From positions 1 through 52,943 of the forward strand of contig JAOUNA010000002.1 in NCBI GenBank assembly GCA_029881215.1: a stretch of 52,943 bases of DNA, read 5' to 3'. The stretch is from Myxococcales bacterium (GTDB taxonomy: Bacteria; Myxococcota_A; UBA9160; SMWR01). The notes under the pieces are model-generated. The model saw only the letters and a list, made by a program, of their open reading frames with translations, had not been told where the DNA came from and made no database searches. How positions within the stretch are numbered: the first letter of the stretch is position 1; the number at the start of each line of letters is the position of its first letter. The position numbers and the translations under genes are program-made. Below are positions 1,182 through 37,606 of the stretch, piece by piece.

Positions 1182-2168
1182 ATGAAGCTTCCGCTGTACA
1201 AGATTCTGCGCGGCCTGCTTCCGTGGATCATCTCTGGCTGCCTGCTCGCGTATGTGTTCGGCTGGGCAACCGATTGGCAACGCCTGCGGCAGGCCACGGA
1301 GCAGGCGAATCTCCCGCTCTTCGTTCTGTTCGTGACGGCGGATCGCCTGGCCTTCTTCGTGATCTGGACGTGGCTCTGGGCCGCAGCCCTGCGGCGCCTG
1401 GTGGCCAACGTGCCGCTGCGCTCCGTCTTCGCCATTCGAGGCGGCTCGGAGCTGGCGCGCGTGGTCAGCAGCCCGGTCTCCGACGCAGCCTTCTTCCTGG
1501 GCCTGGTCCAGCTCGCCGGCGGGCGCATCGAGGCCGTCGCGGCCGCGGCACTCGTCCCGGCGATCGCACACTTCGCCGTCATGCTGGTCCAGATGACGAT
1601 CGCCGCGCCCTTTCTCGAGGGTGGCGTCGCCGCGAATCCAGGCCTGGCGAGCGCGCTCGCCGTCCTGTGGACGCTCTTGATCGCGTGCGCGATCGCCGTG
1701 TGGCTGTTCCGGACCGAGCGGCTGAAGTTTCGCGCGGCCGCTCGCGTCGCAGCTTGGATCGATCGCTTCCCGCCGCGCGAGCTGGCGATCTTCTTCTGGG
1801 GCTTCGCGGCGTTGGCACTGTTCGACGTGCAGATCCAGTGGCTCGCATCGCACGCCTTCGGCGTCCCGATCGACTGGACGGCCCTCGCAGCGCGCATCCC
1901 GATCGTCTATCTGCTCTTTACGATCCCGACCCTGGGCAATTTCGGCACACGCGAGCTGGCGTGGGCCGGCTTGTTCGCCGAGTTCGGCGCGCGCGACGCC
2001 CTCATCGCCTACGCCTTTGCCGTGAATGCCCTGTTCATGGTGCTGAACCTGGCGATCGGCATCGTCTTCCTGCCGCGCGCGGTGGAATTGATTGCCGCGC
2101 TGCGCCGGGCACGGCGCGAGGGTGAGCGCGTTCCGCGGCCACTCCTGCACGACCCCACCGATCATTGA
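1182..2168 (+). CDS. Lysylphosphatidylglycerol-synthase TM-domain (UPF0104, flippase-like) integral membrane protein
   Basis: 328 aa with about 8 hydrophobic segments; N-terminal pattern LPWIISGCLLAYVF..TDWQRL and C-terminal TIPTLGNFGTRELAW..LF match the family pattern PxxxGxxGxRE. Confidence 0.6.
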   Translation: MKLPLYKILRGLLPWIISGCLLAYVFGWATDWQRLRQATEQANLPLFVLFVTADRLAFFVIWTWLWAAALRRLVANVPLRSVFAIRGGSELARVVSSPVSDAAFFLGLVQLAGGRIEAVAAAALVPAIAHFAVMLVQMTIAAPFLEGGVAANPGLASALAVLWTLLIACAIAVWLFRTERLKFRAAARVAAWIDRFPPRELAIFFWGFAALALFDVQIQWLASHAFGVPIDWTALAARIPIVYLLFTIPTLGNFGTRELAWAGLFAEFGARDALIAYAFAVNALFMVLNLAIGIVFLPRAVELIAALRRARREGERVPRPLLHDPTDH

Positions 2169-3385: not shown

Positions 3386-4534
3386 TCAGCCGAGCCCGAG
3401 CCTGCGCGCGATGATGATCTTCATGATCTCGTTCGACCCGGCGTAGATCGGCTGCACGGCCGCGTCCGCGTAATCGCCGGCGATCGGGGTCTCGGACATG
3501 AAGCCGTAGCCGCCGTGCAGCTGCAGGCATTCTCCGGTGAGTCGCTTCTGCAGATCGGTCGTCCAGTACTTCGCCATGCTGACCTCGGCGACGATCTCGT
3601 CGCCGCGCACGTGCGCGGCGAGCAGCTTGTCGACGAATGCCTGACCGATCTCGACCTCCGACGCGAGCTCGGCAAGCACGAATTGGGTGTTCTGGAAGGC
3701 CGCGATGGGCCTGCCGAAGGCCCGGCGCTCCACGACGTACGCGATCGTGTCCTCGAGCGCGCGCCGCGACGACGCGACGGAGCCCACCGCGATGCAGAGT
3801 CGCTCCTGCTGCAGCTGCGCCATGAGCATCGCGAATCCGCCCCCCTCCGCACCGAGCAGGTTCTCCGCCGGCACGCGACAGTCGCGGAAGAAGAGCTCGC
3901 TCGTATCCTGTCCCTTGAGTCCGAGCTTCTCGAGATTGCGGCCGCGCTCGAAGCCCGGCGTGTCGGCGTCGACGAGGAAGAGGCTCATGCCGGCGTGGGG
4001 AGGATCGGCCGCGGGATCCGTCTTGGCCACGACGATGACGAGATCGCAGATCTGACCGTTCGAGATGAAGGTCTTGGAGCCGTTCAGCACATAGTGATCG
4101 CCGTCGCGCACCGCGCGCGTCTGGATTCCGGCAAGATCGGAGCCCGCTGCGGGCTCGGTCATGGCGATGGCGAGCAGGATCTCCCCCGCGATCGCGCCCG
4201 GGAGGTAGCGCGCCTGCTGCGCGGGGCTGCCGTAGGCCACCAGATAGGGCATGCAGATGTCCGCGTGCAGGGACACCATGAGCGCGTGCGCCCGGATGCG
4301 GGCCAGCTCCTCGATGACGATTGCGTCGAAGAGGAAATCCCCTCCCGCGCCCCCGTATGCCTCCGGCGCGCTGGCGCCCAGATAGCCGGCCGCACCGAGT
4401 CGGCGCCAGCTGTCGCGATCGGTGCAGCCCGCCCGGTTCCACTCCGCCACCCGGGGTGCAACCTCGGCCTCGGCGAAGCGGCGGAACTCGTTCCGGAAGA
4501 GCTCGTGCTCCTCTGCGAAGACGTCTCGCCGCAT
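3386..4534 (-). CDS. Acyl-CoA dehydrogenase (long-chain specific type)
   Basis: Start reassigned to MRRDVFAEEH (ATG at 4534). Motifs IAMTEPAAGSDL, LNGSKTFISNG, QDTSELFF, QERL, QLHGGYGFM and IYAGSNEIMK. Confidence 0.92.
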   Translation of the reverse strand: MRRDVFAEEHELFRNEFRRFAEAEVAPRVAEWNRAGCTDRDSWRRLGAAGYLGASAPEAYGGAGGDFLFDAIVIEELARIRAHALMVSLHADICMPYLVAYGSPAQQARYLPGAIAGEILLAIAMTEPAAGSDLAGIQTRAVRDGDHYVLNGSKTFISNGQICDLVIVVAKTDPAADPPHAGMSLFLVDADTPGFERGRNLEKLGLKGQDTSELFFRDCRVPAENLLGAEGGGFAMLMAQLQQERLCIAVGSVASSRRALEDTIAYVVERRAFGRPIAAFQNTQFVLAELASEVEIGQAFVDKLLAAHVRGDEIVAEVSMAKYWTTDLQKRLTGECLQLHGGYGFMSETPIAGDYADAAVQPIYAGSNEIMKIIIARRLGLG

Positions 4535-4583
4535 TCCCTCGATTCTCCTCTCGGGCGCCGCGCCCCCGATTCGATCCGCCGCG

Positions 4584-6899
4584 CTAGAGATGCCTCCAGA
4601 TGCGAATGCCGAGGAAGCTCGCGGCCACAGCAAAGATGAGCGTCGGCCCCCATCCGCCCACGGCGGGCGGCACCGTTCCGCCGTAGCCCAGGGATACACC
4701 CACGGCGGTCACCATGATGTAGGCCACGCCCAGGATTCCGCTCACCAGCAGGGTCTGGGCCGGACCCGGGAAGGGCGGGCCGCCCACTGCGAAGAACAGC
4801 ACGCAAACCGGGAGCACCAGACACGCCAACGCGTCGGCGAGCTTGACGTGAAAATCGACGCGCAAGGCGGTGGCATCGTAGCCGGCGGCTTCCACCTCGG
4901 CGATCTCCTCGGCGAGCTGCCCGACGCTCAGGTGCATGGTGTCCAGGTCCGCCGGCAGCGCCTCTCCGAGATTGGCGTAGGGAAGCGCGGCCACCTCCTG
5001 CGCGCGCCCCTCGCGGATCTCGACGCGGTGCGGCTCCCAGAGGCGCCAGATGCCGCGGCCGACGTGGCGCGCCGCGCGCGCATCCGAGCGGCTGATCGGA
5101 AGGCCGTTCTCCCCGATCTCGTAGATCGTGAGATTCCGCGCGTCGCCGTAATCGGGATCGAAGCGCGCGGCTTCGAGAACGCGATTTCCCGAGCGGCGCC
5201 ACACTTCCATCTTCGCCTGCTCCGAAAATCTCTGGTAGAAGTCCGCCTTGATCTCGGTCTGCTTGAGCTCGTCGGCCAACGCGTTCGCGCGCGGCACGAC
5301 CACGTTGCGCAGCACGAAATAGGCGGGCGCGACCAGCATGCTGAGCACCAGGACGGGCAGCAGCGCCCGGGGCGCGGAGATGCCGCAGGCGCGCATTCCG
5401 ATCAGCTCGCCCTCGACCGCCAGCAGACTCACCAGCAGCGCCGTGCCGACCAGCAGTGCCATGGGAACGACGCGCGATGCGAGCAGCGGAAGTCGCGCCG
5501 CATAGAAGCGCGCCACCTGGCCGCCCGATGCGTGGAAGCGCGCGAACCAGTCGAGGCGCTCCATCACGTCGATCAGCAGATACGCCACGAGCAGAACGCC
5601 GAACGCGAGGGCAACCAGCTGCAGCGCCCGCTCGGTGATGTAGATCGTGAGCGCGTAGGGCCGCGGCCTGCCGGCGGCGTGCGCGCTGAACAAGGTGAGG
5701 CGCCGCGTGGGCAGTTGGGGTCGGTCGAAGGCGAGACCGAGCACCTCGGCACGGCGCGCGCGCAGCAGCAGCAGGCCCGCCAGCAGCGCCAGCACTCCGT
5801 TGGGGAGCCAGACACCCGCGGCTACACCGACGACCTCGGCCTGAATCAGTCCTTCCCCGAACTGGACGAGCACGAAGTAGGCGAGCGTCGTCACGATCCC
5901 GAGCACGCTGCCACCGGCGCGAGAGAAGTGGCGGCGCATCAGGAACAGCGGCACCGCCAGAAGACCGAAGAGCAGGGTCGCGGCGGGCGTGGAGAATCGG
6001 CGCTGCAGCTCGATCGCGGCGCGCGGCAGCGGTTCCGCCTCGCTGGGAACGAAGGCTTCGGCGGCAGCGGCGAGCTCCTCGAGCGTGAGGCTCTGCAGCT
6101 GTTTTTCGGCGCTGCGCGCGATGGGCTGGTCGCCCGCGGGCAGCGCGGTCGTCATCGACTCGAAGCGCAGCAGGTGCGCACCCTCGCGCGGCGAGAGCAG
6201 CAAGGCGCCGTTCTCGAGCGTGATCTCCACGCCGCCATCCGGCGTGCCGATCACGAGACCGCTGCGCGCGAAGATCGTCTCGGCGATTCCGGGAGACCAG
6301 ACCAGCACCCCGCGCAGGTCGTCTCCCCGGGCCGAGACTTCGCGCGCCTCGATCTGCCAGTCCCCGAAACGACTGACGGCAGCGGGCCGGAAGTTCACCA
6401 GCGGCTTCTGACGCCCGATGCTCTCCAGGGTCGCATCGAGCGTGCGGCTCGCGAAGGGCGCGCCCCACAGCGACAGCGCCAGGGAGACCAGACCGAGCGT
6501 CGCAGCCAGACTCGCGATGGGCCCGATGAGCCGGGGCGCAGACACACCGGAGGCCTCGAGCGCCAGGATCTCGCGATCGGCACCGAGTCGACCGAGCGCC
6601 ACCATCGCACCGATCAGCACCGCGAACGGGTAGATCTCCGCGGCAACCGGCAAGGCCTCGTAGAAGGCGACGAGCGCGACCTGGCCGGCGGCGATGCCCC
6701 GATTCAGGATCAGCTGCGAGAACACCACGAGATCGCGCGTGAGGACGATCAACGTGAGGCCGACGAGCCCGAACAGGAACGGACCCAGCGCTTCGCGCGC
6801 CACATACCAGTAGAGGGTGGGCCCGGGGTGACGTCGCCACGGAAGCGAGCGACCGGCGAGCGCGTATTCACCGGACGGCGACAACGCGAGGCGATCCAT
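4584..6899 (-). CDS. Fused LptF-LptG type ABC permease (two tandem YjgP/YjgQ modules in one polypeptide)
   Basis: 771 aa with two repeats of the LptF/G architecture: TLYWYVARE...REILALEASGVS...ELQRRFS...WLPN, then TIYITERAL...GELIGMRACGIS...DFHVKLA...GWGPTLIF. RBS GGAGGA lies before the ATG. Confidence 0.85.
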   Translation of the reverse strand: MDRLALSPSGEYALAGRSLPWRRHPGPTLYWYVAREALGPFLFGLVGLTLIVLTRDLVVFSQLILNRGIAAGQVALVAFYEALPVAAEIYPFAVLIGAMVALGRLGADREILALEASGVSAPRLIGPIASLAATLGLVSLALSLWGAPFASRTLDATLESIGRQKPLVNFRPAAVSRFGDWQIEAREVSARGDDLRGVLVWSPGIAETIFARSGLVIGTPDGGVEITLENGALLLSPREGAHLLRFESMTTALPAGDQPIARSAEKQLQSLTLEELAAAAEAFVPSEAEPLPRAAIELQRRFSTPAATLLFGLLAVPLFLMRRHFSRAGGSVLGIVTTLAYFVLVQFGEGLIQAEVVGVAAGVWLPNGVLALLAGLLLLRARRAEVLGLAFDRPQLPTRRLTLFSAHAAGRPRPYALTIYITERALQLVALAFGVLLVAYLLIDVMERLDWFARFHASGGQVARFYAARLPLLASRVVPMALLVGTALLVSLLAVEGELIGMRACGISAPRALLPVLVLSMLVAPAYFVLRNVVVPRANALADELKQTEIKADFYQRFSEQAKMEVWRRSGNRVLEAARFDPDYGDARNLTIYEIGENGLPISRSDARAARHVGRGIWRLWEPHRVEIREGRAQEVAALPYANLGEALPADLDTMHLSVGQLAEEIAEVEAAGYDATALRVDFHVKLADALACLVLPVCVLFFAVGGPPFPGPAQTLLVSGILGVAYIMVTAVGVSLGYGGTVPPAVGGWGPTLIFAVAASFLGIRIWRHL

Positions 6900-7100: not shown

Positions 7101-7841
7101 ATGAAAGCCATCATCCTGAGCGCGGGCCAGGGTCGCCGCCTGCTTCCGATGACCGCCGAGCGGCCGAAGTGCCTGCTGCCGGTGGACGGCGATCAGTCGA
7201 TGCTGTCGATGCAGCTCGGTGCGCTCGCGCGCTGCGGCATCGAGCGCGCGAGCGTCGTCGTGGGCTTCGGAGCCGCCGCCGTCGAGGCGCAGCTGGCGGA
7301 GCGCCCGGTCCCCGGCCTGGCGGTGGAGACGCTCTTCAATCCCTTCTTCGCCTCCAGCGACAACCTCGTCAGCTGCTGGCTCGCCCGGAGCCTGATGCAC
7401 GACGACTTCCTGCTGCTCAACGGCGACACGCTCTTCGAAGACGCCGTGCTCGAGCGCCTGCTCGAGGCGCCGCCCGCACCGATCGCGGTGACGATCGATC
7501 GCAAGACGGCGTACGACGACGACGACATGAAGGTCGGCCTGGATGCAAACGGGCGCCTGCTCGCCATCGGAAAGGATCTGCCCGCGCCCACGGTGGGAGC
7601 GGAGTCGATCGGGCTCATCGCGTTCCGGGAGTCGGGAGCCAAGATCTTCGCGGACGAACTCGGTCGCGTGATCCGCGCGCCGGCGGCCCTGCGCCGCTGG
7701 TATCTCTCCGTCGTAAACGAGCTCGCGCAGCACAATGCCGTGGAGACCGTCTGCATTCAGGGTCTCTGGTGGTGCGAAATCGACTCCCCGGATGATCTGG
7801 CTCGCGCGCGAGCCGATTGTGAGGCGCGAAGCCGCGCGTAA
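7101..7841 (+). CDS. Phosphocholine-cytidylyltransferase (LicC/IPCT)-like NTP transferase; candidate CpgD-like head-group cytidylyltransferase
   Basis: MKAIILSAGQGRRLLPMTAERPKCLL, LFNPFFASSDNLVSCW, LLLNGDTLF, DDDDMKV, AESIGL and WCEIDSPDDL motifs. Confidence 0.85.
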   Translation: MKAIILSAGQGRRLLPMTAERPKCLLPVDGDQSMLSMQLGALARCGIERASVVVGFGAAAVEAQLAERPVPGLAVETLFNPFFASSDNLVSCWLARSLMHDDFLLLNGDTLFEDAVLERLLEAPPAPIAVTIDRKTAYDDDDMKVGLDANGRLLAIGKDLPAPTVGAESIGLIAFRESGAKIFADELGRVIRAPAALRRWYLSVVNELAQHNAVETVCIQGLWWCEIDSPDDLARARADCEARSRA

Positions 7842-7981: not shown

Positions 7982-8797
7982 ATGCAGATCCGCGACATCC
8001 CGCTTGGACACGGCGCGCCCCTCGTCCTGATCTCCGGGCTGAACGTGCTCGAGTCGCTCGAAGGTGCTCTCGCCTGCGCCGCGTCGGTTCAGGCGATTGC
8101 CGAGCGCCATGGCCTGCCCGCAATCTTCAAGGCGTCCTTCGACAAGGCGAACCGATCGAGCCACAGCAGCTTCCGGGGACCCGGTCTCGACGAAGGCCTG
8201 CGCATGCTCCAGCGGGTCAAGGCCGAGACGGGTCTGCCCATCACCACCGACGTACACGAGCCGGGCCAGGCGAAGATCGTCGCCGAGGTGGCGGATCTCC
8301 TGCAGATCCCGTCCTTCCTCTCGCGACAGACCGATCTGGTCGCCGCCTGCGCGGGGACGGGGCGCCCCCTCAACGTCAAGAAGGGCCAGTTCATGGCACC
8401 GGCGGACGTCGCGCTCGTGGTGGAGAAGGCGGAGCGCTACGGCGCGGGTGGCACGATGGTCACGGAGCGCGGCACGAGCTTCGGCTACAACGACCTCGTC
8501 GTCGACATGCGCAGCCTGGTGACCATGCGGGAGTACGCGCCGGTGTGTCTGGACGCAACGCACGCCGTGCAGAATCCGGGCGGGGGCGTGCGGTCCAGCA
8601 GCGGGGATCGCCGCTTCGTGTCGCCGCTCGCGCGGGCGGGCGTCGCGGTGGGCATCGACGCCCTCTTCGTCGAAACGCACGCCGATCCGGACGCGGCGCC
8701 GTGCGACAGCGCGTGTCAGATCCGCATCGAGGACCTGGACCGCTTGCTCGCCGAGGTCTGCGCGATCCGCGCGGCGGTCGCAGACGCCCGGCCCTGA
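7982..8797 (+). CDS. kdsA: 3-deoxy-D-manno-octulosonate 8-phosphate (Kdo8P) synthase
   Basis: KASFDKANRSS, TTDVHE, LQIPSFLSRQTDL, NVKKGQF, ERGTSFGYNDLVVD and DATHAVQ motifs. Confidence 0.95.
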   Translation: MQIRDIPLGHGAPLVLISGLNVLESLEGALACAASVQAIAERHGLPAIFKASFDKANRSSHSSFRGPGLDEGLRMLQRVKAETGLPITTDVHEPGQAKIVAEVADLLQIPSFLSRQTDLVAACAGTGRPLNVKKGQFMAPADVALVVEKAERYGAGGTMVTERGTSFGYNDLVVDMRSLVTMREYAPVCLDATHAVQNPGGGVRSSSGDRRFVSPLARAGVAVGIDALFVETHADPDAAPCDSACQIRIEDLDRLLAEVCAIRAAVADARP

Positions 8798-8798
8798 C

Positions 8799-9962
8799 GT
8801 GGCCACGCGGGGGGCAGTGCTTGCGCGGCAGGAGCCCCGCAGCGACGCCGCCCGGCACCCACCGCGCGTCTGGGTGCTCGCCGACGACCGGCCCGGCAAC
8901 ACGACCCAGTCGATCGGCCTGGCGGAGACGCTGGGCTGGCCGTACGAGCTCAAACGCCTGCAGTGTCGCTGGCCGTCGCGGCTGCACAATCGGCTGCTCG
9001 GGGCGCACCGCCTCGGCATCGACGCGCGGCGTTCGTCGCCGCTCGAGCCTCCCTGGCCGGATCTGGTGATCGCCGCGGGAAGGCGCACCGCACCCGTAGC
9101 GCTCTGGATCCGCAAGCGTGCGGGCGGCGACACGAAGATCGTGATGCTCGGGCGCAAGGGAGCCGACGATGCGCGCCGTTTCGATCTCGCGGTGACACCC
9201 TCCTATTGCCGCCTGCTGCCGCATCCTCGGCGCGTCGAGATCGCCGCGCCGCTGCACCGCGTGTCCGAAGCGCTTCTCGCGGAGGCGCGCCGCGGCTGGC
9301 AAGAGCGCCTCGGGGCAGCCCGGCGGCCGCGCATCGCGCTGCTGGTGGGTGGCACCTCGGGACAGTATCGACTGGGCGCCGCCGTGGCGCGGCGCCTCGC
9401 CGCGGACGTCGTGCGCATGTCACAATCTTGTGGCGGATCCGTCTTCGTCACCACGAGCCGCCGTCTCGGCGCGGCGGCGACGCACGCGCTGTGCAGCGGC
9501 ATGCAGGAAGTCGCTCACCTGCACCGCTGGACGCCGCGCGCGACGGAGAATCCCTATCTGGGCTATCTGGCGCTGGCCGACGCATTCGTCATCACGGGAG
9601 ACAGCGAGTCGATGCTGTCCGAGGCCTGCTCGCTGGGCAAACCGGTCTATGTGTATCCCCTCCCCGTGCGCCGCTCCTTCCGCATCTTGAGCACCCCGCG
9701 CGACGCGGTGTGGCGGCGGGCGGTCTCGGGGCGCGGCGCCCTCGCGCGCATCTGCAGCGCCCTGATCGAGCGCGGCTGGGTCCGCCCCGCGCGCGATCTC
9801 GACCGCTTCCACGCGGCGCTCCAGGCGTGCGGCGCGGCTCGGCGCTTCGCGGGTGTCTATGACCCCGCCCATGCGGCTGCCCCGCTGCACGATCGCGACG
9901 CGGTCGCCGCGCGCGTGCGCGCGCTGTGGCCGCACGGGGCCGGCGCGGCGCTTCCGCTATAG
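8799..9962 (+). CDS. ELM1/GtrOC1 (DUF1022) family putative glycosyltransferase
   Basis: WVLADDRPGNTTQSIGLAE, PWPDLVIAAGRRT, LLVGG, VTTSRR, ENPYLGYLALAD and ITGDSESMLSEA motifs; starts 1 bp after the kdsA stop. Confidence 0.85.
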   Translation: MATRGAVLARQEPRSDAARHPPRVWVLADDRPGNTTQSIGLAETLGWPYELKRLQCRWPSRLHNRLLGAHRLGIDARRSSPLEPPWPDLVIAAGRRTAPVALWIRKRAGGDTKIVMLGRKGADDARRFDLAVTPSYCRLLPHPRRVEIAAPLHRVSEALLAEARRGWQERLGAARRPRIALLVGGTSGQYRLGAAVARRLAADVVRMSQSCGGSVFVTTSRRLGAAATHALCSGMQEVAHLHRWTPRATENPYLGYLALADAFVITGDSESMLSEACSLGKPVYVYPLPVRRSFRILSTPRDAVWRRAVSGRGALARICSALIERGWVRPARDLDRFHAALQACGAARRFAGVYDPAHAAAPLHDRDAVAARVRALWPHGAGAALPL

Positions 9963-10041
9963 TTCTTGACCTGCGCGGACCCCTGAGAACTCCGCGCCTC
10001 CCCTCCCCCGCCAACCCGTGCAATTCGGTCCGGATCGCCGC

Positions 10042-11784
10042 ATGCGCCTGCTCCGCTACTTCTTGCGCGCCTATCCCTGGCAGAGCCTGGTGGTGCTCGC
10101 GTGTCTGCTCGTCGCGGCGCTGACCGAGGGCATCGGACTCTCCGCGCTGCTCCCGCTGCTCTCCCTCGCCACGGGATCGGGTGCCGACGGCGCGGTGCGC
10201 GCAGCGCCCTCCGCATACGAGCAGTGGGTGCGCGCAGAGCTCGCCGAAATCGGCGTCGAGCCGACGCTGGGCGTGCTGCTGGCGCTGATCGCCACGGCGT
10301 TCTGGCTCAAGGGCATGCTGCTGCTGCTCTCCAAGAAGCAGGTCGGATACACGGTGGCGCGCGTCGCCACCGATCTGCGCCTGAACCTCCTGCAGGCGCT
10401 TCTCACCGCGCGCTGGCGTTTCTATACGCGGCAGCCCATGGGCGCCGTCGCGAACTCGATGGCGACCGAGGCGGATCGCGCGTCGGAGGCCTACCGACAT
10501 CTGGCGCTGATCGCGAGCTACGGGGTCGAGGCGGTGCTCTACGCCGGGATCGCGCTGGCGATCTCCTGGCGCGCAACGCTGGCGGCCGGACTCGGCGCGC
10601 TGTTCACCGTCTCCGTGCTGCACGCGCTCGTGCGCATGTCGGGACGCGCCGGACGCAAGCAGACCCGGCTGCTCAAGTCGCTGCTGGAGCGGCTCACCGA
10701 CGCGCTGCAGGCCGTGAAGCTCCTCAAGGCGACCGGTCGGGAGGCGTCGATCGGACCGCTGCTCGCCGAAGACACGCGCAAGCTGAACCGCCAGCTCGAG
10801 CGCCGCGTGCTGTCGCAGGAGGCGCTCCGCGCCCTGCAAGAGCCCATCCTCGTCAGCTTGATGTGTGCGGGCGCCTTTGTCGCGCTGGTCGTGCTGGCCA
10901 TGCCTTTTTCGAGCGTCATGGTCCTGATCGTGATCGTCACCCGGACGCTGACCCGCGTGAACTCGATGCAGTCGAAGTATCAGTCGATGGTGACGGAGGC
11001 GAGCGCCCTCTGGTCGCTCAGCGAGCTCATCGATCGCGCCAGGCAGGAGCGCGAGCCGCTCGGCGGCAGCGTCGCCCCGCACCTCGATCGCGCCATCGAG
11101 TTCAAGAAGGTGAGCGTCCGCTACGAGGATCGGCCGGTCCTCGACGAGGTCTCCCTCGAGCTGCCGGCCGGACGCATCACCGCCATCGTGGGCCCCTCCG
11201 GTGCGGGCAAGACCACGTTCGTCGATCTGATCACCGGATTGCTGAAGCCGGATTCGGGTCAGGTCGTGATCGACGGCGTGCCCCTGGACGCGTTCGACCT
11301 GCACCGCTGGCGCGAGGGCATCGGCTACGTACCCCAGGAAATCCTCCTGCTGCACGACTGCATCCGTACCAACGTCACGCTGGGGGATCCGAACGTGACG
11401 GATGCCCAGGTGGAGCAGGCGCTGCGCAGCGCCGGGGCGTGGGAATTCGTCGCGAATCTGCCGGATGGCATCCGCGCCAGCGTGGGCGAGCGGGGCGCCC
11501 TGCTCTCGAGCGGGCAGCGGCAGCGCATCGCGATCGCCCGTGCGCTGGTGCACCGCCCCAGACTCCTGATCCTCGACGAGGCCACAGCTGCGCTCGACGC
11601 GGCGAACGAAGCGGCGATCTGGGCCAGCGTGGAGCGACTGCGCGGCGCAACCACGGTGGTCGCCATCTCCCACCAGCCGTCCCTCGCGAAGATCGCCGAT
11701 CGCGTCGTGCGCATCGACGACGGCCGCGCCGTCGAGACCGCGCCGGAGAGGCCGGCTCGAGCTCCAAGTCAGGAAGTGGCGTAG
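10042..11784 (+). CDS. Type IV ABC exporter, fused TMD+NBD (MsbA/PglK-like lipid or glycolipid flippase)
   Basis: N-terminal TM helices; Walker A GPSGAGKT, Q-loop YVPQE, signature LSSGQRQR, Walker B ILDEATAALD, H-loop ISH. Start set at ATG 10042 (ORF track 10018). Confidence 0.88.
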   Translation: MRLLRYFLRAYPWQSLVVLACLLVAALTEGIGLSALLPLLSLATGSGADGAVRAAPSAYEQWVRAELAEIGVEPTLGVLLALIATAFWLKGMLLLLSKKQVGYTVARVATDLRLNLLQALLTARWRFYTRQPMGAVANSMATEADRASEAYRHLALIASYGVEAVLYAGIALAISWRATLAAGLGALFTVSVLHALVRMSGRAGRKQTRLLKSLLERLTDALQAVKLLKATGREASIGPLLAEDTRKLNRQLERRVLSQEALRALQEPILVSLMCAGAFVALVVLAMPFSSVMVLIVIVTRTLTRVNSMQSKYQSMVTEASALWSLSELIDRARQEREPLGGSVAPHLDRAIEFKKVSVRYEDRPVLDEVSLELPAGRITAIVGPSGAGKTTFVDLITGLLKPDSGQVVIDGVPLDAFDLHRWREGIGYVPQEILLLHDCIRTNVTLGDPNVTDAQVEQALRSAGAWEFVANLPDGIRASVGERGALLSSGQRQRIAIARALVHRPRLLILDEATAALDAANEAAIWASVERLRGATTVVAISHQPSLAKIADRVVRIDDGRAVETAPERPARAPSQEVA

Positions 11785-11789
11785 CTCCC

Positions 11790-12596
11790 GTGGACCGCTT
11801 GAGGACATTGGTGCTCGCCGGCCAACGCGGTGCCGCAGATCCCTTCGCCGCGAGCCTCGCGGCGCGCCATCGAGCGCTCCTGCCCGTAGCGGGCATGCCG
11901 ATGCTTCTGCGCGTGATCCGCACGCTGCGCGAGACGGGTGCGGTCGGGCGCATCGCGCTGAGCATCGACGAGCCCGCCGCGCTCGACGAAGTGCCCGAGC
12001 TCCGCAACCTGATCGCGAAAGGAGAGATCGACGTACACCGCAGCCTCGACTCGCCCAGCCGAAGCGTCTCCGCCGTGCTCGCCGACTGCGCTGCGGACGA
12101 GCCCCTGCTGGTGACGACCGCGGACCATCCGCTGCTGACGCCCGAAATGGTCGCGCACTTCGCCGCAGCCGCGGGGCACAGCGACGCGGATCTGCTGGTG
12201 GGCGTTGTCGCCGCCTCGCTGCTCCGGCGCAGCTACCCCGAGACGACGCGCACCTACGTGCGCCTGCGCGGAGAGGCCTACAGCGGCGCGAATCTCTTCT
12301 GCTTTCGCACGGAGCGGGCGCGCCGCGCCGCGCGCTTCTGGCTGCGTGTCGAGCGGCAGCGCAAGAGCCCCTGGCGCATGGTGCGCGCCTTCGGGCCCCG
12401 CCTGCTGCTGCGCTTCGCGCTGCGCCGCCTCGATCTCGATGCGGCACTCGAGGCCGCCTCGCAGCGGATCGGGGCGGTGATCCGCGCGGTCTCGCTGCCC
12501 TTCCCCGAGGCTGCCATCGACGTGGATCGCCCAGCGGATCTCGAGCTGGCGGAGCGCATCCTCGCCGCGCGGGCCGGAACGGCGCCGCGCACCTGA
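11790..12596 (+). CDS. MobA-like NTP transferase (NTP_transf_3-like)
   Basis: 3' part of ORF 10101..12596; GTG start 5 bp after the ABC gene stop; LVLAGQRG..DP, ALLPVAGMPML, LLVTTADHPLL, YSGANLF and AAIDVDRPADL motifs. Confidence 0.85.
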   Translation: MDRLRTLVLAGQRGAADPFAASLAARHRALLPVAGMPMLLRVIRTLRETGAVGRIALSIDEPAALDEVPELRNLIAKGEIDVHRSLDSPSRSVSAVLADCAADEPLLVTTADHPLLTPEMVAHFAAAAGHSDADLLVGVVAASLLRRSYPETTRTYVRLRGEAYSGANLFCFRTERARRAARFWLRVERQRKSPWRMVRAFGPRLLLRFALRRLDLDAALEAASQRIGAVIRAVSLPFPEAAIDVDRPADLELAERILAARAGTAPRT

Positions 12597-12602
12597 TCGA
12601 TC

Positions 12603-13589
12603 TCACGCGGGTCCGGCGAGGAGCGTTTCGGGGCGATCGCTCTCGACGAAGCGCTGCGTCTGCGGATCCCAGCTGCGAGCGCGCAACGTGACGCGGAAGC
12701 GCGCTGTGCCCGCCCCGGCGTCGCGCGCTTCGAATGCGAGCACATGGTATTGCGCGCGCTTGTGGGGCTTCGTACCGATGTCGGAGGCGGAGCGGGCGCA
12801 CACGACCGGAATCGATCCATGCGGCCCTTCGATGCGCGCGATGCGCGTGCGGTGCAGATGCCCGTGCAGCACGATCTCCGCGCCGGCGCGCTGCAACACG
12901 TCACACAGCGCGCGCGCGTCGCAAAGCCCTCGACGCGGGGACGTCGCACCCGGATCCGGCGGATGGTGGATCAAGACCACGCGCTGCAAGCCGGTCGGTG
13001 CGAGCGCACTCAACACGCGCTCGAGGCGCGCGAGCTGCTGACCCCCGACCCGGCCCGACGCGAGAAACGGAGGCGTCGGGACCGCGGAGGATACGCCGAT
13101 GAGCGCCACGGGCTCCCGGATGCGAACACTCGGAAAGGCGAGCCCGCGATAGGCGCCACCCTGCGATTCGCCCAGCAGCGCGCGGCCCGCGGCGTCCGAT
13201 TCGAGATACTCGCTCCACAGATCCCAGGAGCACGCACGGGGCACGCGCACGTAGGTGTCGTGGTTCCCCGGCACGGCGGTGACGCGCTCGGGACTCCCGA
13301 TGCGCCGCAGCCAATCCCGAGCTACGAGGAACTCTTCCTCGAGCGAGACATTGGTCAGGTCGCCCGTGATCACGAGCTGATCCGGAGATGTGACAGCGAG
13401 GTCTTCGAGCAGCGCATCCAGCACCTCCGTGCGATGCGTTGCGCCGCGGCGCAGACGCCACGACAGCCAGCCGAGCAAGCGCTTGCCGAGCAGCGGACGC
13501 AGCGAGCCCGGAGCCACGGGCGTGGCGTGCAGATCCGAAAGGTGCGCGAGGGTGAAGATGGCTTGGACCTCCGCGCGGGCGATCGGCAA
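12603..13589 (-). CDS. Calcineurin-like metallophosphoesterase (CpdA/Icc-like)
   Basis: All five motifs present: HLSDLH, ITGDLTN, VPGNHD, IHHPP, LHGHLH. Start uncertain (TTG at 13589 chosen). Confidence 0.88.
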   Translation of the reverse strand: MPIARAEVQAIFTLAHLSDLHATPVAPGSLRPLLGKRLLGWLSWRLRRGATHRTEVLDALLEDLAVTSPDQLVITGDLTNVSLEEEFLVARDWLRRIGSPERVTAVPGNHDTYVRVPRACSWDLWSEYLESDAAGRALLGESQGGAYRGLAFPSVRIREPVALIGVSSAVPTPPFLASGRVGGQQLARLERVLSALAPTGLQRVVLIHHPPDPGATSPRRGLCDARALCDVLQRAGAEIVLHGHLHRTRIARIEGPHGSIPVVCARSASDIGTKPHKRAQYHVLAFEARDAGAGTARFRVTLRARSWDPQTQRFVESDRPETLLAGPA

Positions 13590-13633
13590 GGCTAACCCAC
13601 GCCGCGCCGCTGTGATACCTTGAGTGACTTCTG

Positions 13634-14830
13634 ATGCCCGCTTCGTCCTTCGATGACGCGTCCTCCGCGTGGGTCCTGCGCAGCAAGAAGCCGCGCGTCG
13701 AGATCTACGGACTGACGACGGAAGAGCGGCTGCTGCGCTCGCTGGCAAGAGCCGGCTGCACGTCCGCAGAGCTCGTGACGCCGGACGCGCGACCGGCGCT
13801 GCCGCGCGCGAAATCGGTCGTCGTGGTCCGCGGCGACGCGATCCTCGACGAGCGCCTCGTCGCCGGCCTCGTCGCGCGCCCCGGCGCACTGCTCGTTGCG
13901 CGCGGACCCGGGCTGTTGGGTGGCCACGTGCCGAGCGAGCGTGCCGAAGAACTCGTGCACGCGCTGGCCAGCGGCGTGCCGCCGGAGGGAATCGGGGGCG
14001 TGCCGCAAGTCTCGCCGGCAGAGTTCGCGCCGGCCTACGTGGCCAGCCTGCGCAAACGCGAGGCGCCGTTCGCGCTGTTGGCAGCTCCGGAGCGCGCGCG
14101 AGAGATCGAGGAGCGCATCTTCGGGGCTGCCTACAAGGGCGTGACGGATCTCGTCACCAAGTGGATCTGGCCGCGGCCGGCCCTGTGGGCCACGCGCGTG
14201 TGCGCGCGTGCCGGCGTGCACCCCAACACGGTCACCATCGCGAGTTGGGTGCTCGCGATCGGCGCGGTGGGCCTCTTCGCGACCGGCTGGTTCGGGACGG
14301 GCTTGCTGGTGGCGTGGCTCATGACCTTCCTCGACACGGTGGACGGCAAGCTCGCCCGCGTGACGCTCACCTCGAGCAGGCTCGGCGACGTGCTCGATCA
14401 CGGCCTCGATCTCGTCCATCCCCCATTCTGGTACGCCGCATGGGGCCTCGGACTCGGCGCCGGATACGAGCTCGCCACGGCCATCGCGGTCGGAGGCTAC
14501 CTGCTCGGGCGCTTGCAGGAAGGGATCTTCCTGGCCGCCTTCGAGATCGAGATGCACTCGTGGCACCCCCTCGACGCGTTGTTCCGCACCATCACCGCGC
14601 GCCGCAATCCCAACCTGATCCTGTTGAGCGTGGGAACGCTCGGGGGGCGCCCCGATCTCGGCCTGGTGATGGTGGCGCTCTGGACACTCGTCTCGCTCGG
14701 CTTCCACGCGATCCGAATGCTGCAGGCCTTCGCGCGGCGTCGCCGGGGCGAAGCCGTCGCCGCGTGGGACACCGGCGCAACCCCGGAGCCGCGCGAGCCC
14801 GCATCGAGCGGCGCGCTGACGCAACGCTGA
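13634..14830 (+). CDS. CDP-alcohol phosphatidyltransferase with soluble N-terminal domain; CpgA-like
   Basis: Signature DTVDGKLARVTLTSSRLGDVLDHGLD (D-x2-DG-x2-AR-x8-G-x3-D-x3-D), plus HPNTVT, YKGVTDLVTKWIWP and TARRNPNL. Confidence 0.88.
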   Translation: MPASSFDDASSAWVLRSKKPRVEIYGLTTEERLLRSLARAGCTSAELVTPDARPALPRAKSVVVVRGDAILDERLVAGLVARPGALLVARGPGLLGGHVPSERAEELVHALASGVPPEGIGGVPQVSPAEFAPAYVASLRKREAPFALLAAPERAREIEERIFGAAYKGVTDLVTKWIWPRPALWATRVCARAGVHPNTVTIASWVLAIGAVGLFATGWFGTGLLVAWLMTFLDTVDGKLARVTLTSSRLGDVLDHGLDLVHPPFWYAAWGLGLGAGYELATAIAVGGYLLGRLQEGIFLAAFEIEMHSWHPLDALFRTITARRNPNLILLSVGTLGGRPDLGLVMVALWTLVSLGFHAIRMLQAFARRRRGEAVAAWDTGATPEPREPASSGALTQR

Positions 14831-15858
14831 TGCGGCGCTGCGCGCGACCCGGCTGGCTCGCGCTCGCGTGGCTGTGCGCCGCGAGCGCCAGTGCAGGGGG
14901 CCTCGCGGAGAGCGTGGATCCGTCTGCGCGACTGCCCGGCGGATCCGCCGCGTCGGAATACTGGGATCTCGTGGCGCATTTCAGCGCCGGGCACCGCGTC
15001 TACGCGCGCTTCCAGATCACCAACGAGGGGCCCGGCGAGCGCAACGGCCTCGCCTTCGGACACGTGATCTTTCCCGACGGCAGCGTCACGCCCTTCCAGA
15101 ACGGGCGCCGCAGGGATCGCTGGACGCTCGGTCCGCAGGGGCGCCGTCTCGAGATCGGCGCGAGCGTGCTCGACCTGTCGCAGGACACGCGACGCCGGCT
15201 CTCGGTGGTCAAGCAAAAGAAGGGGATCCGGGTGCAGCTCGAGTGGGCTGCCGATGCCGCGGCCGTCTCGCTGCCGGAGTCGAGCGGCTCCGGCTTCCAG
15301 ATCGACGTGCTCGCCCTGGCCGCGCCGATCTCGGGGACGCTCTGGGTGCGCGGCATGGACGCGCCTCACGAAGTGCAGGGTCGCGCGGCGTTGACGCACA
15401 CCTGGATGAACTCGGCGGAGAGCAAGATCGTCGCGCGCCGCGTCGACATCGTGACGTTCGATCCCGATGCAGCGCTCTTCCTGGCCGACGTCACCGCGCC
15501 AGACGGCACACATCGTCAAGCCGCAGCGCTCGCGGAGCACGCGCGCATCACGTTCGTGTCACACGGAGTTGCATCCGATGCGCCGCCGCCCGGCGTCATC
15601 CCGGCGCAGCTTCGCGTCGCGCTGCCCGAGTTGAGCGGCTCGGTCTCCCTGGGGGAGGTGCGTTTGCGGCACGATCCCCTCGACGCGCTACCGCTCGCGC
15701 TGCGAATGGTGTACTCCTTCGGGACTCGACCGCATCGTGTCTGGGCCGACGCCGGCGTAGCGATGTCTCGATCGAGCGGAGCGGATCGAGCCCCTCTCTC
15801 GATTCGGGATACGGGCATCGCCGCCCTCACATTTCTCGGCTCTCCCCCCTCCAACTAG
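14830..15858 (+). CDS. Secreted/periplasmic beta-rich hypothetical protein, possibly AttH/CrtC/Svf1-like double-lipocalin fold
   Basis: 3' part of ORF 13669..15858. ATG overlaps the upstream stop (TGATG). Signal peptide MRRCARPGWLALAWLCAASASA; motifs SEYWDL...GHRVYARFQITN and GRAALTHTWMN. Fold assignment is inference. Confidence 0.65.
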   Translation: MRRCARPGWLALAWLCAASASAGGLAESVDPSARLPGGSAASEYWDLVAHFSAGHRVYARFQITNEGPGERNGLAFGHVIFPDGSVTPFQNGRRRDRWTLGPQGRRLEIGASVLDLSQDTRRRLSVVKQKKGIRVQLEWAADAAAVSLPESSGSGFQIDVLALAAPISGTLWVRGMDAPHEVQGRAALTHTWMNSAESKIVARRVDIVTFDPDAALFLADVTAPDGTHRQAAALAEHARITFVSHGVASDAPPPGVIPAQLRVALPELSGSVSLGEVRLRHDPLDALPLALRMVYSFGTRPHRVWADAGVAMSRSSGADRAPLSIRDTGIAALTFLGSPPSN

Positions 15859-15888
15859 TGGACGTCTGCGGATCCGGAGGATCCATCC

Positions 15889-16845
15889 GTGCGTATCGGT
15901 GTGGTGAACAACTTGCGCGCCGGCCAGAGCCGGCGCTGCGTCTCGAAGCTCCTCGCGCTCCTCGCGCGCTACCCCGACGTCCGCCACATCGAGACCGAGA
16001 GCGCCCATGCGCTGCCCGAGGCCCTCGCGGCCCTTCTGCACGAGCGGGTCGAGTTGCTCGTGCTCAACGGAGGCGACGGAACCCTGCAGCATGCCCTCAC
16101 CGCGCTCTTGTCGAATCCGGATCTCGAGAAGCCGCCCTGGGTTGCACCGCTGCGCGGCGGCCGCACCAACATGGCCGCGCTCGATCTCGGCGTGCGCCGC
16201 GATCCCGTCGCGGCGCTCGAGCATCTGCTGCGCAGCGCCGCGGCGGGGCGCCTGCAGGAGCTGCGCGTCGCCCGCCCCGTGTTGCGCGTCGCGTCTTCGC
16301 ACAGCAACGAGGTGCACTACGGCATGTTCTTCGGCGCCGGCATGATCCAGCGCGCCATCGGCCTCACACACCGCATCTTTCCGAAGGGCCGCAGCCAGGG
16401 CGTTCTCGGTGCGAGCCTCGTGACGACCGCCCTGATCGCGAAGACGCTCGCCCGCCCCACGCACGGGATCCTCACGCCGGACAAGGTGGAGATCCTGCTC
16501 GACGGGCGCGCCGTGCCGGACGGCGAGTTCTACCTGGTGATCGCCTCGTCGCTGCAGCGCCTCTTCCTGCGCCTGAATCCCTTCTGGGGAGAGGGGCCGG
16601 GGGGCGTGCGTTTCACAGCGCTCGCGAGCCGCGTCCCGCGCCTTGCGGCGGCCGTGCCCGGCATCCTGCGCGGCCGACCGGGCGCTGGCGTCAGGCAGGA
16701 CAGCGGCTACACCAGCGTCAATTCGCATCGGATCGAGCTGCGACTCGCCTGCGGCTTCACCGTGGACGGTGAGATCTTCCCCGCGCGCGCCGACGAGCAC
16801 GTGACGATCACCGCGGACTCGCGCATCCACTTCGTCCGCGCCTGA
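15889..16845 (+). CDS. Diacylglycerol/sphingosine kinase-fold lipid kinase; CpgB (ceramide kinase)-like
   Basis: VVNNLRAG, LNGGDGTL, GGRTNMAALDLG, GMFFGAG and FTVDGEI DAGK motifs; GGAGG RBS upstream of the GTG. Confidence 0.85.
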   Translation: MRIGVVNNLRAGQSRRCVSKLLALLARYPDVRHIETESAHALPEALAALLHERVELLVLNGGDGTLQHALTALLSNPDLEKPPWVAPLRGGRTNMAALDLGVRRDPVAALEHLLRSAAAGRLQELRVARPVLRVASSHSNEVHYGMFFGAGMIQRAIGLTHRIFPKGRSQGVLGASLVTTALIAKTLARPTHGILTPDKVEILLDGRAVPDGEFYLVIASSLQRLFLRLNPFWGEGPGGVRFTALASRVPRLAAAVPGILRGRPGAGVRQDSGYTSVNSHRIELRLACGFTVDGEIFPARADEHVTITADSRIHFVRA

Positions 16846-16853
16846 GGCCGACC

Positions 16854-17822
16854 GTGAAGCAGAGCCACGCCGCGCTCGCTCAGCTCGCATCGAATACACT
16901 GTTCCGACCCGCCTCCGAGGCGGCCAGCCGGGTCTGCGAAGAGATCCGCTCCCGACACGGGGATGCGCTGGTGGCGGTGCTCTTCTACGGCTCGTGTCTG
17001 CGCGGCGAGAGCAGCGAAGGCGTGCTCGATTTCTACGCGCTCGTGGACGATTACGTCCGCGCCTACGACGCGCGCTGGCCCGCGTGGCTCAACGCAGCGT
17101 TTCCTCCGAGCGTCTTCTATCTCGAGTGTGATGCGGGATCGCAGCGCCTGCGGGCCAAGGTCGCCGTCATCTCGGTGCGCGACTTCTTGCGGGGAGTCGG
17201 AGCCCGCAGTGTGCGCTCGGGGATCTGGGCGCGCTTCTGCCAGCCCTCCGTCGCGGTATGGGTGCGTGACGCAGCCGCGCGCGAGGCGCTGGTCGCGGCG
17301 GTGGTCCGCGCGGCGCTCACCGCCGTCGAGCGAACACTTCCGCAGCTGCCCGACGCACGCGGCATGCAGCGCTTCGACGCGACGTCGTTCTGGCAGGCGT
17401 CGTTCCGGGAGACCTACGCCGCGGAGCTGCGCGCCGAGAGCGACACCACCATCCAGAATCTCTACCACACGGCGCCGGAGTACTACGCGCGCCTGCTCGA
17501 GGCGGCGCTCGAGTCTCTCGCCGGCGAGCGGCGGATCGCGCTGCGGCGCGACGGCGCGCTGTGGATCGTCGAGCATCCGCTCCGCCGCCTGAGGCGCGCG
17601 CGCACCATCGCGCGGCTGCGCAGACCCGCTGCCAAGCTGCTCGCCCTGATCCAGCTGCTGAAGAGTGCCTGCACCTTCGGCGATTGGCTGCCCTACGCGC
17701 TGTGGAAGCTGGAACGGCATACGGGCACGCGACTCGTGCTCACGGAGAGGCAGCGCCGTCATCCGTGGCTGTTCGGCTGGCCCCTCATCCTGCGCGTGCT
17801 GCGCCGCGGCGAGCTGCGTTGA
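16854..17822 (+). CDS. Nucleotidyltransferase-fold protein resembling Caulobacter CpgC (possible CDP-lipid-forming enzyme)
   Basis: Pol-beta NTase-like AVLFYGSCLR...VLDFYALVD, plus WARFCQP, TYAAELRAE and KSACTFGDWLPYALWKLERHTG...QRRHP; lies directly after the DAGK-like gene, as cpgB-cpgC do (recalled, not searched). Confidence 0.65.
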   Translation: MKQSHAALAQLASNTLFRPASEAASRVCEEIRSRHGDALVAVLFYGSCLRGESSEGVLDFYALVDDYVRAYDARWPAWLNAAFPPSVFYLECDAGSQRLRAKVAVISVRDFLRGVGARSVRSGIWARFCQPSVAVWVRDAAAREALVAAVVRAALTAVERTLPQLPDARGMQRFDATSFWQASFRETYAAELRAESDTTIQNLYHTAPEYYARLLEAALESLAGERRIALRRDGALWIVEHPLRRLRRARTIARLRRPAAKLLALIQLLKSACTFGDWLPYALWKLERHTGTRLVLTERQRRHPWLFGWPLILRVLRRGELR

Positions 17823-33350: not shown

Positions 33351-33354
33351 GCGC

Positions 33355-35127: not shown

Positions 35128-35130
35128 GCG

Positions 35131-35946: not shown

Positions 35947-35950
35947 GGCC

Positions 35951-37549: not shown

Positions 37550-37559
37550 CCGCAACCTC

Positions 37560-37606
37560 CTGAATTGTCTTATCTTATATCTTCTGCGGCGGAAAACACA
37601 AAGACG
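37560..37606 (-). promoter_or_regulatory. AT-rich candidate promoter of the diaphorase-mobA-aor-fdh operon
   Basis: Minus strand reads TTGTGT-N16-TATAAG followed by AGGAGG; conspicuously AT-rich against the window background. Confidence 0.4.

Follow-up and report, generated by a model that had tools for sequence, protein, structure and literature searches.

Comparative analysis of a 52,943-nucleotide contig from a Myxococcales bacterium (JAOUNA010000002.1, assembly GCA_029881215.1), hereafter the window, outlined a cluster of lipid head-group genes in which kdsA stands together with genes for an ELM1-family transferase of the GT-B glycosyltransferase fold and for an ATP-binding cassette (ABC) exporter. 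This trio is very probably part of a synthesis and export cluster for a complex anionic sphingolipid of the CPG type, with the ABC exporter and a fused LptF-LptG permease (LptFG) serving as dedicated paralogues. The ELM1 protein, designated ELM1-S after its clade, probably decorates the CPG-type lipid rather than lipid A, and the residue added in this genome can tentatively be proposed to be Kdo (3-deoxy-D-manno-octulosonate). The complete proposal, in which the ELM1 enzyme would add Kdo to the head group of a phosphosphingolipid before its dedicated export, comes close to an even chance without reaching it; we infer both the transferred sugar and the acceptor, from gene content and sequence comparison. 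The genes of the cluster, with the matches that identify them, are as follows.

4584-6899, minus strand: fused LptF-LptG permease ('LptF2G2'-like, second copy); PF03739 in two stretches, E 8.9e-117
7101-7841, plus strand: nucleotidyltransferase 1, CpgD-like (inositol-phosphate-cytidylyltransferase-like); NTP_transferase PF00483, E 1.1e-10
7982-8797, plus strand: kdsA, 3-deoxy-8-phosphooctulonate synthase, 271 aa, ATG start; NF003543 and TIGR01362
8799-9962, plus strand: ELM1-family GT-B transferase (ELM1-S), 387 aa, GTG start; PF06258, E 7.6e-71
10018-11784, plus strand: ABC exporter (half transporter with transmembrane and nucleotide-binding domains), candidate lipid flippase, 588 aa, GTG start; ABC_membrane and ABC_tran
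~11790-12596 (start taken as GTG 11790), plus strand: nucleotidyltransferase 2, MobA/CofC-like (CC_1153-like); third-position G+C, PF12804, E 4.2e-13
12603-13592, minus strand: metallophosphoesterase (CC_1158-like); PF00149, E 6.6e-13
13634-14830, plus strand: CDP-alcohol phosphotransferase with N-terminal extension (CpgA-like); PF01066, E 2.6e-9
14830-15858, plus strand: secreted protein, AttH-like double beta-barrel; AlphaFold2 (AF2) and Foldseek
15889-16845, plus strand: DAGK_cat lipid kinase, CpgB-like ceramide kinase candidate; PF00781, E 4.1e-11
16854-17822, plus strand: CpgC-like protein, weakly Tam41-like, lipid-phosphate cytidylyltransferase candidate; profile of 9 homologues

The window is one contig (C61) of a 3.43 Mb genome in 375 contigs (89% complete, 5.2% contamination), the closest relatives of which are Myxococcota or 'Deltaproteobacteria' metagenome-assembled genomes (MAGs). 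Because a G+C content of 70% fills the mechanical list of open reading frames (ORFs) with shadow ORFs, genes were mapped by third-position G+C (GC3 frame analysis) and then confirmed with Pfam and NCBIfam. The Pfam scan covered 37 ORFs or frames of the window, with approximately eight further GC3-supported candidate ORFs lying outside it. The start codon of the fused permease is uncertain, its frame being open to 7010, and nucleotidyltransferase 2 became visible only after GC3 frame analysis. The arrangement described in an earlier note on this DNA, with kdsA, ELM1 and the ABC gene lying between two nucleotidyltransferase genes (7101-7841 and ~11790-12596), was confirmed by the ORF list and by the kdsA-ELM1 junction, which reads TGA-C-GTG and leaves a 1-bp gap if GTG 8799 is the start; 55 bp separate ELM1 from the ABC gene. 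The cluster spans approximately 4.6-17.8 kb of the window, is bordered by an acyl-CoA dehydrogenase gene and a MarR gene, and recurs in its entirety in related Myxococcota MAG loci, with the gene order kept or rearranged.

The families flanking the trio match those of the Caulobacter locus for ceramide diphosphoglycerate (CPG2; CC_1152-CC_1168), in agreement with the lipid head-group context proposed in the earlier note. The portions available of the corresponding reports describe CpgD as an IMPCT-like CTP:phosphoglycerate cytidylyltransferase (PMC12275187), CC_1153 as CofC-like, CC_1158 as a phosphoesterase, CC_1159/CpgA as a CDP-alcohol transferase, CC_1160/CpgB as the ceramide kinase and CC_1161/CpgC as resembling CDP-diacylglycerol synthase (PMC11324152). 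All six CPG2-type families (CpgA-D, CC_1153 and CC_1158) are present and clustered in the window, the CpgC-like (E 0.016) and CofC-like (E 6.4e-5) assignments being weak. The comparison with Caulobacter relied on published family descriptions, and alphaproteobacterial loci (L013, L074 and L075) were used for comparison of sequences. These loci carry spt (serine palmitoyltransferase), acyl carrier protein, AasR, GNAT-type ceramide synthase candidate and fatty-acid hydroxylase genes beside the same cpg-like genes, and the window proteins are 27-52% identical to theirs over more than 40% of the query (tblastn).

Nucleotidyltransferase 1 presents a weak NCBIfam match to IPCT/DIPP synthase (E 1.8e-14) and is 48-52% identical to its counterparts in these three spt clusters, while nucleotidyltransferase 2 also matches PF02348 (CTP_transf_3, E 1.5e-4), in addition to CofC. 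The CDP-alcohol phosphotransferase is 44-48% identical to the products of the L074 and L075 genes, the metallophosphoesterase gene also lies beside the CDP-alcohol transferase gene in L005, L006, L008, L011, L014, L074 and L075, and the lipid kinase is 27-34% identical to kinases of proteobacterial spt clusters. The CpgC-like protein matched no Pfam or NCBIfam family, and the top Protein Data Bank (PDB) match for the profile of its homologues was, weakly, the mitochondrial CDP-diacylglycerol synthase Tam41 (6IG2/6IG4), which agrees with a CpgC-like role; its gene directly follows the kinase gene in L015, L074, L075, L126 and L130.

The Caulobacter locus also contains LptF2, LptG2 and LptC2, described in the accessible part of a preprint as required for sphingolipid transport and as binding the LptB of the lipopolysaccharide (LPS) system (bioRxiv 10.64898/2026.04.12.717747). 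The window and the Caulobacter locus thus share a clustered set of CpgD, CofC-like, phosphoesterase, CpgA, CpgB, CpgC and second LptF/LptG families. The window differs in that LptF and LptG are fused, no LptC2 was recognised and the cluster lacks spt and ceramide-synthesis genes, and, with respect to the locus as described in the available text, it adds kdsA, the ELM1-family gene and the ABC exporter. The terms 'ELM1' and 'Kdo' occur zero times each in the accessible portion of PMC11324152, and a literature search over titles and abstract openings returned no link of PF06258, Kdo or ulosonic acids to bacterial sphingolipid clusters. The same preprint, in its available part, states that Myxococci have a single lptFG; the order to which the window belongs carries a second lptFG, contradicting this generalisation.

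The export genes of the cluster lie outside the housekeeping LPS set, as the earlier note had suggested. The ABC exporter is MsbA/HepA-like, but it scores only 264.7 bits against the MsbA equivalog TIGR02203 (cut-off 602) and is the fourth-best match to this profile in the genome, the best (451.4 bits) being encoded on contig C137 (9425-11281). It is 29% identical to the C137 protein and 38-49% identical to the ABC proteins of proteobacterial ELM1/sphingolipid clusters. Similarly, separate single-domain LptF and LptG genes are found on contigs C3 and C139, making the window LptFG an additional paralogue. LptFG is also fused in L005, L008, L010, L011 and L014 (alignments of 734-760 aa), and the position of these extra LptF_LptG permeases within a sphingolipid head-group cluster is that of LptF2/LptG2. 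The half-transporter ABC protein and the LptF/LptG-family permease follow the same logic of flipping and then extracting to the bridge as MsbA and LptB2FGC, differing from these in being extra paralogues with the canonical set elsewhere in the genome.

The earlier note had also reported the absence of lpx, waaA and kdsB genes from the window, and none of these families was found among the scanned real genes, with some eight candidate ORFs outside the scan. Genome-wide searches, which did not extend to kdsC, kdsD, lpxA, lpxD or lpxK, placed lpxC on contig C311, a canonical kdsB on C4 (203 bits, cut-off 155) and lpxB directly upstream of waaA on C62 (2279-3947), with waaA continuing on C137 (2-214), approximately 9 kb from the best MsbA-like gene. 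The splitting of lpxB-waaA over the ends of C62 and C137, together with the MsbA-like gene on C137, outlines an LPS core-lipid A cluster that is separate from the window. Since the lipid A pathway is retained, the lipid proposed here would be additional to lipid A and would not replace it. In Sphingomonas, glycosphingolipids consisting of ceramides with uronic acids replace LPS, placing an acidic sugar on an outer-leaflet ceramide. There the sugar is attached directly to ceramide and LPS is absent, whereas a phosphate-based CPG-type head group is expected here and lipid A genes are present. Sphingomonas glycosphingolipids are mentioned in general terms in the available part of the preprint (bioRxiv 10.64898/2026.04.12.717747).

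The window ELM1 protein matches PF06258 with 239.1 bits (cut-off 27), matching well only profile positions 1-259. Its AF2 model (pLDDT 93.2, pTM 0.89) is consistent with a GT-B architecture of two Rossmann folds, and a Foldseek search with this model returned 119 PDB matches at E<=0.001, the top 50 of which are dominated by GT-B enzymes such as EarP, UrdGT2, CalG1, UDP-GlcNAc 2-epimerases, MurG and heptosyltransferase II. The earlier note had described ELM1 proteins as predicted GT-B enzymes, linked to Kdo in Acinetobacter, and published enzymology bears this out: according to the available portions of PMC12856342 and PMC10936431, the 'ELM1-like' A1S_2903 of A. baumannii is KdoT, a CMP-Kdo transferase acting on Kdo2-lipid IVA, a Rickettsia homologue complements a kdoT mutant, and KdoT is the sole characterised bacterial ELM1 protein. 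In its SRRT motif R180 is required and R179 dispensable (PMC12856342, PMC10936431, available portions). GtrOC1 and four other outer core locus (OCL) proteins are likewise described as PF06258 members in the accessible text of PMC10327509.

The SRRT motif aligns with SRRL at residues 220-223 of the window protein, where S220 and R222 are invariant in a 40-sequence alignment; the equivalence of R222 to R180 is drawn from the motif, KdoT itself being outside the alignment. The second Arg is retained in 32 of the 33 ELM1-S rows and the first is variable, a pattern that mirrors KdoT mutagenesis. The window protein thus has in common with KdoT the PF06258 domain, a predicted GT-B fold and an SRR(T/L) motif with an essential second Arg, and both are associated with a second glycosyltransferase (GnaT for KdoT, a weakly GT8-like domain fused or adjacent to ELM1 in relatives of the window). 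It differs in falling in a separate clade, in being approximately 60-80 residues longer, and in its location within a sphingolipid cluster rather than a lipooligosaccharide core locus.

The distribution of the family was examined in several genome samples. PF06258 matches were found in 117 of 151 Alphaproteobacteria genomes (a count that includes the unpublished genome G045), 27 of 121 Pseudomonadales genomes and 15 of 201 Myxococcota genomes, of which 14 belong to the order of the window (four families) and one, a weak match below the cut-off, to another family of the class; a match is also present in the Caulobacter control genome. A tree was inferred (IQ-TREE quick search, LG+G4, SH-aLRT support only) from 97 non-identical ELM1 domains of at least 270 residues, taken from all fetched loci, and each row was classed as linked if at least two spt/cpg marker genes lay within 12 kb, or as partial if one marker or a partner gene did. 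The window protein falls in a 33-row clade, ELM1-S (SH-aLRT 97), comprising 16 linked rows, 10 partial rows, 6 without a marker in 10 kb and one with short flanks. All linked rows (16/16) and 10 of the 11 partial rows sit in this clade, and the 16 cluster-embedded copies come from Myxococcota, Alpha- and Gammaproteobacteria.

The other 64 rows form a 30-row alphaproteobacterial clade (support 98), a 23-row Pseudomonadales clade (support 100) with proteins of approximately 300-330 aa, presumed from taxon and length to contain the KdoT orthologues, and a 6-row clade, with 5 rows ungrouped. None of the 64 is linked: 21 have marker-free flanks of at least 10 kb, 42 have flanks too short to judge and the single partial row adjoins an spt-like gene of 31% identity. 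The window protein lies outside the clades of short (~300-330 aa) Pseudomonadales and alphaproteobacterial proteins, and Pelagibius carries both kinds, a canonical ELM1 (361.8 bits) and an ELM1-S (198.8 bits).

A CpgC-like gene was detected in 15 of the 151 Alphaproteobacteria, and all six genomes with an ELM1 of the clade are among those 15, in two of them with ELM1-S and the CpgC-like gene on different contigs; no p-value is attached to this co-occurrence because related genomes are not independent. The remaining 9 of the 15 lack ELM1-S, indicating that it is an add-on to the cpg pathway and not a core step. In addition, the gene order kinase, CpgC-like, ELM1 recurs in L015, L075, L126 and L130.

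The proposed pathway would begin at the cytoplasmic face, with the phosphorylation of ceramide and the addition of a phosphoglycerate-type head group. The ELM1-S enzyme would then add a CMP-activated 2-keto-3-deoxy sugar acid to this head group. In this genome the acid would be Kdo, with the neighbouring kdsA responsible for its synthesis and the C4 kdsB for its activation. Flipping of the finished lipid would fall to the ABC exporter encoded in the cluster. The fused LptF2G2, which probably depends for its power on the LptB of the LPS system, as its Caulobacter counterparts do, would pass the lipid to the Lpt bridge and on to the outer leaflet.

The identity of the kdsA product is well supported, since the protein lies above two NCBIfam equivalog cut-offs (NF003543, 363.2 bits, cut-off 242; TIGR01362, 343 bits, cut-off 314). 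In all six close Myxococcota loci for which an upstream flank is available, the gene adjoins ELM1; the two point the same way in L005, L007 and L014, whereas they are divergent in L008, L010 and L011. L006 and L009, which begin with ELM1, are not informative, and L012 lacks kdsA.

Several observations weigh against the proposed pathway, the first of them concerning kdsA itself. The earlier note had counted a sole housekeeping kdsA against its proposal, and this is what the searches show: the window kdsA is the single genome-wide match in the 89%-complete genome, and 15 relatives of the order (G003, G004 and 13 others) carry one copy each, so that all 16 genomes are single-copy and none has a dedicated second kdsA. 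The Kdo of the lipid A core and LPS has to come from this sole copy as well, and its position may be that of a housekeeping gene parked in an envelope-lipid region. In the unbiased sample of the phylum, only 5 of 13 ELM1-bearing genomes have kdsA within 5 kb of ELM1 (G302, G458, G363, G373 and G428), and in the other eight it lies 25 kb away (G378), on another contig (six genomes) or 4.2 Mb away (the one-contig G403); no kdsA was found near ELM1 in the proteobacterial clusters examined.

As regards the transferase, the earlier note had recommended comparing its predicted structure with WaaA; the GT-B prediction is confident, yet WaaA is absent from the top 50 Foldseek matches, whereas TarL, a CDP-ribitol transferase, is among the GT-B matches. 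ELM1-S proteins are a separate clade and only 20-22% identical to the presumed KdoT-like rows in the alignment, so the donor specificity of KdoT cannot be transferred to them. Some genomes carry three or four ELM1-S paralogues, which suggests several different donors. As regards the anchor, the spt candidate resides on a separate 3.6-kb contig, unlinked to the cluster, and neither an alphaproteobacterial-type ceramide synthase (CerS) nor AasR was detected in the window genome by tblastn. The interpretation put forward in the earlier note, a Kdo-decorated non-LPS lipid, is partly supported.

In one alternative, ELM1-S would attach to the sphingolipid head group a residue that is not Kdo, either a hexose or other sugar from an NDP-sugar donor or, in the manner of TagF/TarL, a phospho-acid such as phosphoglycerate from a CDP donor, with kdsA being a housekeeping gene whose location has no mechanistic meaning. 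The single-copy kdsA, its irregular adjacency to ELM1 and its absence from the proteobacterial clusters, the multiple paralogues and the TarL match are all compatible with it, as is the production of CDP-activated acids by the cluster itself, to judge from the CpgD product described in the available portion of PMC12275187. We nonetheless regard it as unlikely. The only family member assayed, in the literature available, uses CMP-Kdo; the absence of ELM1-S from 9 of the 15 CpgC-bearing Alphaproteobacteria argues against a core CPG step; and KdsB- or PseF-like cytidylyltransferases lie next to or near ELM1 in three proteobacterial clusters.

The first of these clusters belongs to a gammaproteobacterium (G179) in which four copies of ELM1-S surround spt, AasR, a CerS candidate, a kinase and a CpgC-like gene. 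A second KdsB (NF009905, 274.5 bits, cut-off 255) is encoded in its ELM1/spt region, while a better-scoring KdsB and the single kdsA are found on another contig. In this region (L125:14320-19862 and L126:3708-5339) the second KdsB gene forms a run with an aldolase-like (HMGL) gene with a best match, below the cut-off, to 4-hydroxy-2-oxovalerate aldolase, a HAD hydrolase, a gene of unknown function, a 2-oxoglutarate/Fe oxygenase and a sulfotransferase; together with the two sulfotransferases in the G256 cluster, this content hints at sulfated, sugar-acid-bearing sphingolipids. In the alphaproteobacterial genomes G116 and G041, a PseF-like CTP_transf_3 gene lies directly beside ELM1-S. Cytidylyltransferases of this sort in three unrelated clusters are more readily explained by a CMP-ulosonic acid donor than by an NDP-hexose, and the evidence for a sugar-acid donor, drawn from several lineages, is circumstantial.

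Partner genes in other clusters also point to a glycan. A weakly GT8-like domain of approximately 350 aa is fused to ELM1 in L005, L006, L007, L010, L014 and L138, and is encoded by a separate nearby gene in L013, L069, L070, L075, L125 and L128. The fusions are approximately 750-870 aa long with ELM1 as the C-terminal half (L005:8942-11107, L007:1683-3842, L014:8964-11107, L010:5927-7975 and L138:2645-4825), and their N-terminal region bears an NDVDQ (DxD-like) motif. The GT8 label is tentative because the signals are weak (PDB profile E 0.053; Pfam E 6.3e-5, below the cut-off, for the Pelagibius copy), and the L007 copy of the domain had no Pfam or NCBIfam match. The domain is missing from the ELM1 gene of the window and, by tblastn, from its whole genome. 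The Pelagibius cluster further encodes an AT3-SGNH acyltransferase and a TylF-like methyltransferase, and an LpxL/LpxM-family (Lip_A_acyltrans) acyltransferase gene adjoins ELM1-S in the sphingolipid cluster of G002 (L015:13267-14268). In E. coli, the LpxL/LpxM family acts on Kdo-bearing lipid IVA.

A second alternative would assign the trio to ordinary LPS machinery: Kdo would be supplied through kdsA, a KdoT-like ELM1 would append one more Kdo residue to the inner core of lipid A, the ABC protein would be an MsbA variant and the sphingolipid genes would be mere neighbours. The activity of KdoT on Kdo2-lipid IVA and the complementation by the Rickettsia homologue, both taken from the accessible literature, would fit such a role, as would the sole kdsA copy and the presence of lpxC, lpxB, waaA and kdsB in the genome. 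This assignment is improbable, however, given that ELM1-S is a distinct clade, confined in the alphaproteobacterial sample to genomes with a cpgC-like gene (6/6) and often wedged between cpg genes, and that Pelagibius has a canonical ELM1 besides its ELM1-S. Furthermore, the window ABC gene is orthologous to those of sphingolipid clusters and ranks fourth among the MsbA-like genes of a genome in which a better one shares a contig with the 3' piece of the split waaA.

The nature of the anchor was addressed through the capacity for sphingoid-base synthesis. The sole alpha-oxoamine synthase of the genome has serine palmitoyltransferase NF047600 as its best match (545.7 bits, below the cut-off of 640), and spt, AasR or CerS is found in all the proteobacterial clusters that share this gene set. 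That the substrate of the DAGK-type kinase and the CpgC-like protein in this lineage is diacylglycerol, or else an ether lipid or some other neutral lipid, yielding a phosphoglycolipid, is very improbable: the CerS and AasR not detected by tblastn, the unlinked spt and the low identity of the kinase to proteobacterial ones would agree with it, but an spt-like gene exists, the genome is fragmented and 89% complete, and the proteobacterial counterparts consistently lie with sphingolipid genes.

Returning to the proposal of a Kdo-capped phosphosphingolipid, the comparison across lineages allows a wider, more doubtful extension. A widespread and undescribed class of outer-membrane lipids could consist of phosphosphingolipids whose cap is Kdo or a similar ulosonic acid activated by CMP, built by the dedicated ELM1 clade and exported by a parallel ABC flippase and LptF2G2, with glycosylation, sulfation, acylation or methylation added in some lineages. 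One Myxococcota order, as well as scattered Alpha- and Gammaproteobacteria, would then possess a second glycolipid system of LPS-like character beside lipid A. What is known of the CPG2 pathway and of its Lpt-like export comes from work in Caulobacter alone, between 2022 and 2026. If ELM1-S does place Kdo-type sugar acids on phosphosphingolipids, it would represent a second bacterial route to an LPS-like, cation-bridged outer leaflet, with a bearing on the dispensability of lipid A, the targets of polymyxin-type peptides, innate immune recognition and the original role of the family to which plant mitochondrial ELM1 belongs. An ELM1-S cluster is present in a cultured Pelagibius isolate (L013), which makes the proposal testable and lends it real interest.

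Some further features of the cluster and its surroundings were also observed. The secreted protein encoded at 14830-15858 matched no Pfam or NCBIfam family and was seen only in Myxococcota loci. Its AF2 model (pLDDT 71.7) matched 2ICH (putative AttH, TM 0.59/0.62), CghA/Fsa2 and 25-phosphosteroid lyase in Foldseek (E 1e-9 to 6e-7), a predicted fold shared with the CghA/Fsa2 pericyclases and the lyase, and it could be a periplasmic component of the pathway that binds or processes lipids. The acyl-CoA dehydrogenase gene (3386-4699, minus strand) adjoins the fused LptFG, and its product is 68-71% identical to that of a gene located directly beside GT8-ELM1 fusions in two other genomes of the same taxonomic order (L154 and L166); it may belong to the pathway, for instance via lipid desaturation. 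A protein with an LPG_synthase_TM (MprF flippase-type) domain is encoded at 1182-2168 (plus strand), 2.4 kb from the cluster, and the Caulobacter locus is said, in the available text, to include a 'potential flippase', CC_1166.

Several candidate assignments were rejected. ORFs at 12744-13595 and 14868-16772 (both plus strand) had no Pfam match, and GC3 supports genes at 12603-13592 (minus strand) and 14830-15858 (plus strand) instead. Nucleotidyltransferase 2 is not considered the KdsB of the organism, given the canonical kdsB on C4 and the E-value of only 1.5e-4 against CTP_transf_3. Likewise, ELM1 and the metallophosphoesterase are not considered stand-ins for LpxB and LpxH, since a canonical LpxB is encoded on C62 and the phosphoesterase occupies the CC_1158 position of cpg clusters.

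Two of the related loci, L007 and L012, lie on contigs assigned to Spirochaetales and Opitutales MAGs, and their genes are 63-74% identical to those of the window (kdsA, nucleotidyltransferase 1 and ELM1; a short-chain dehydrogenase/reductase and a thiolase), which suggests mis-binned Myxococcota contigs or recent transfer. Finally, the region at 30549-37741 (minus strand) encodes a molybdopterin oxidoreductase with Fe-S domains, an aldehyde:ferredoxin oxidoreductase, a MobA-like nucleotidyltransferase and a NuoF-like flavoprotein, and is unrelated to the cluster.

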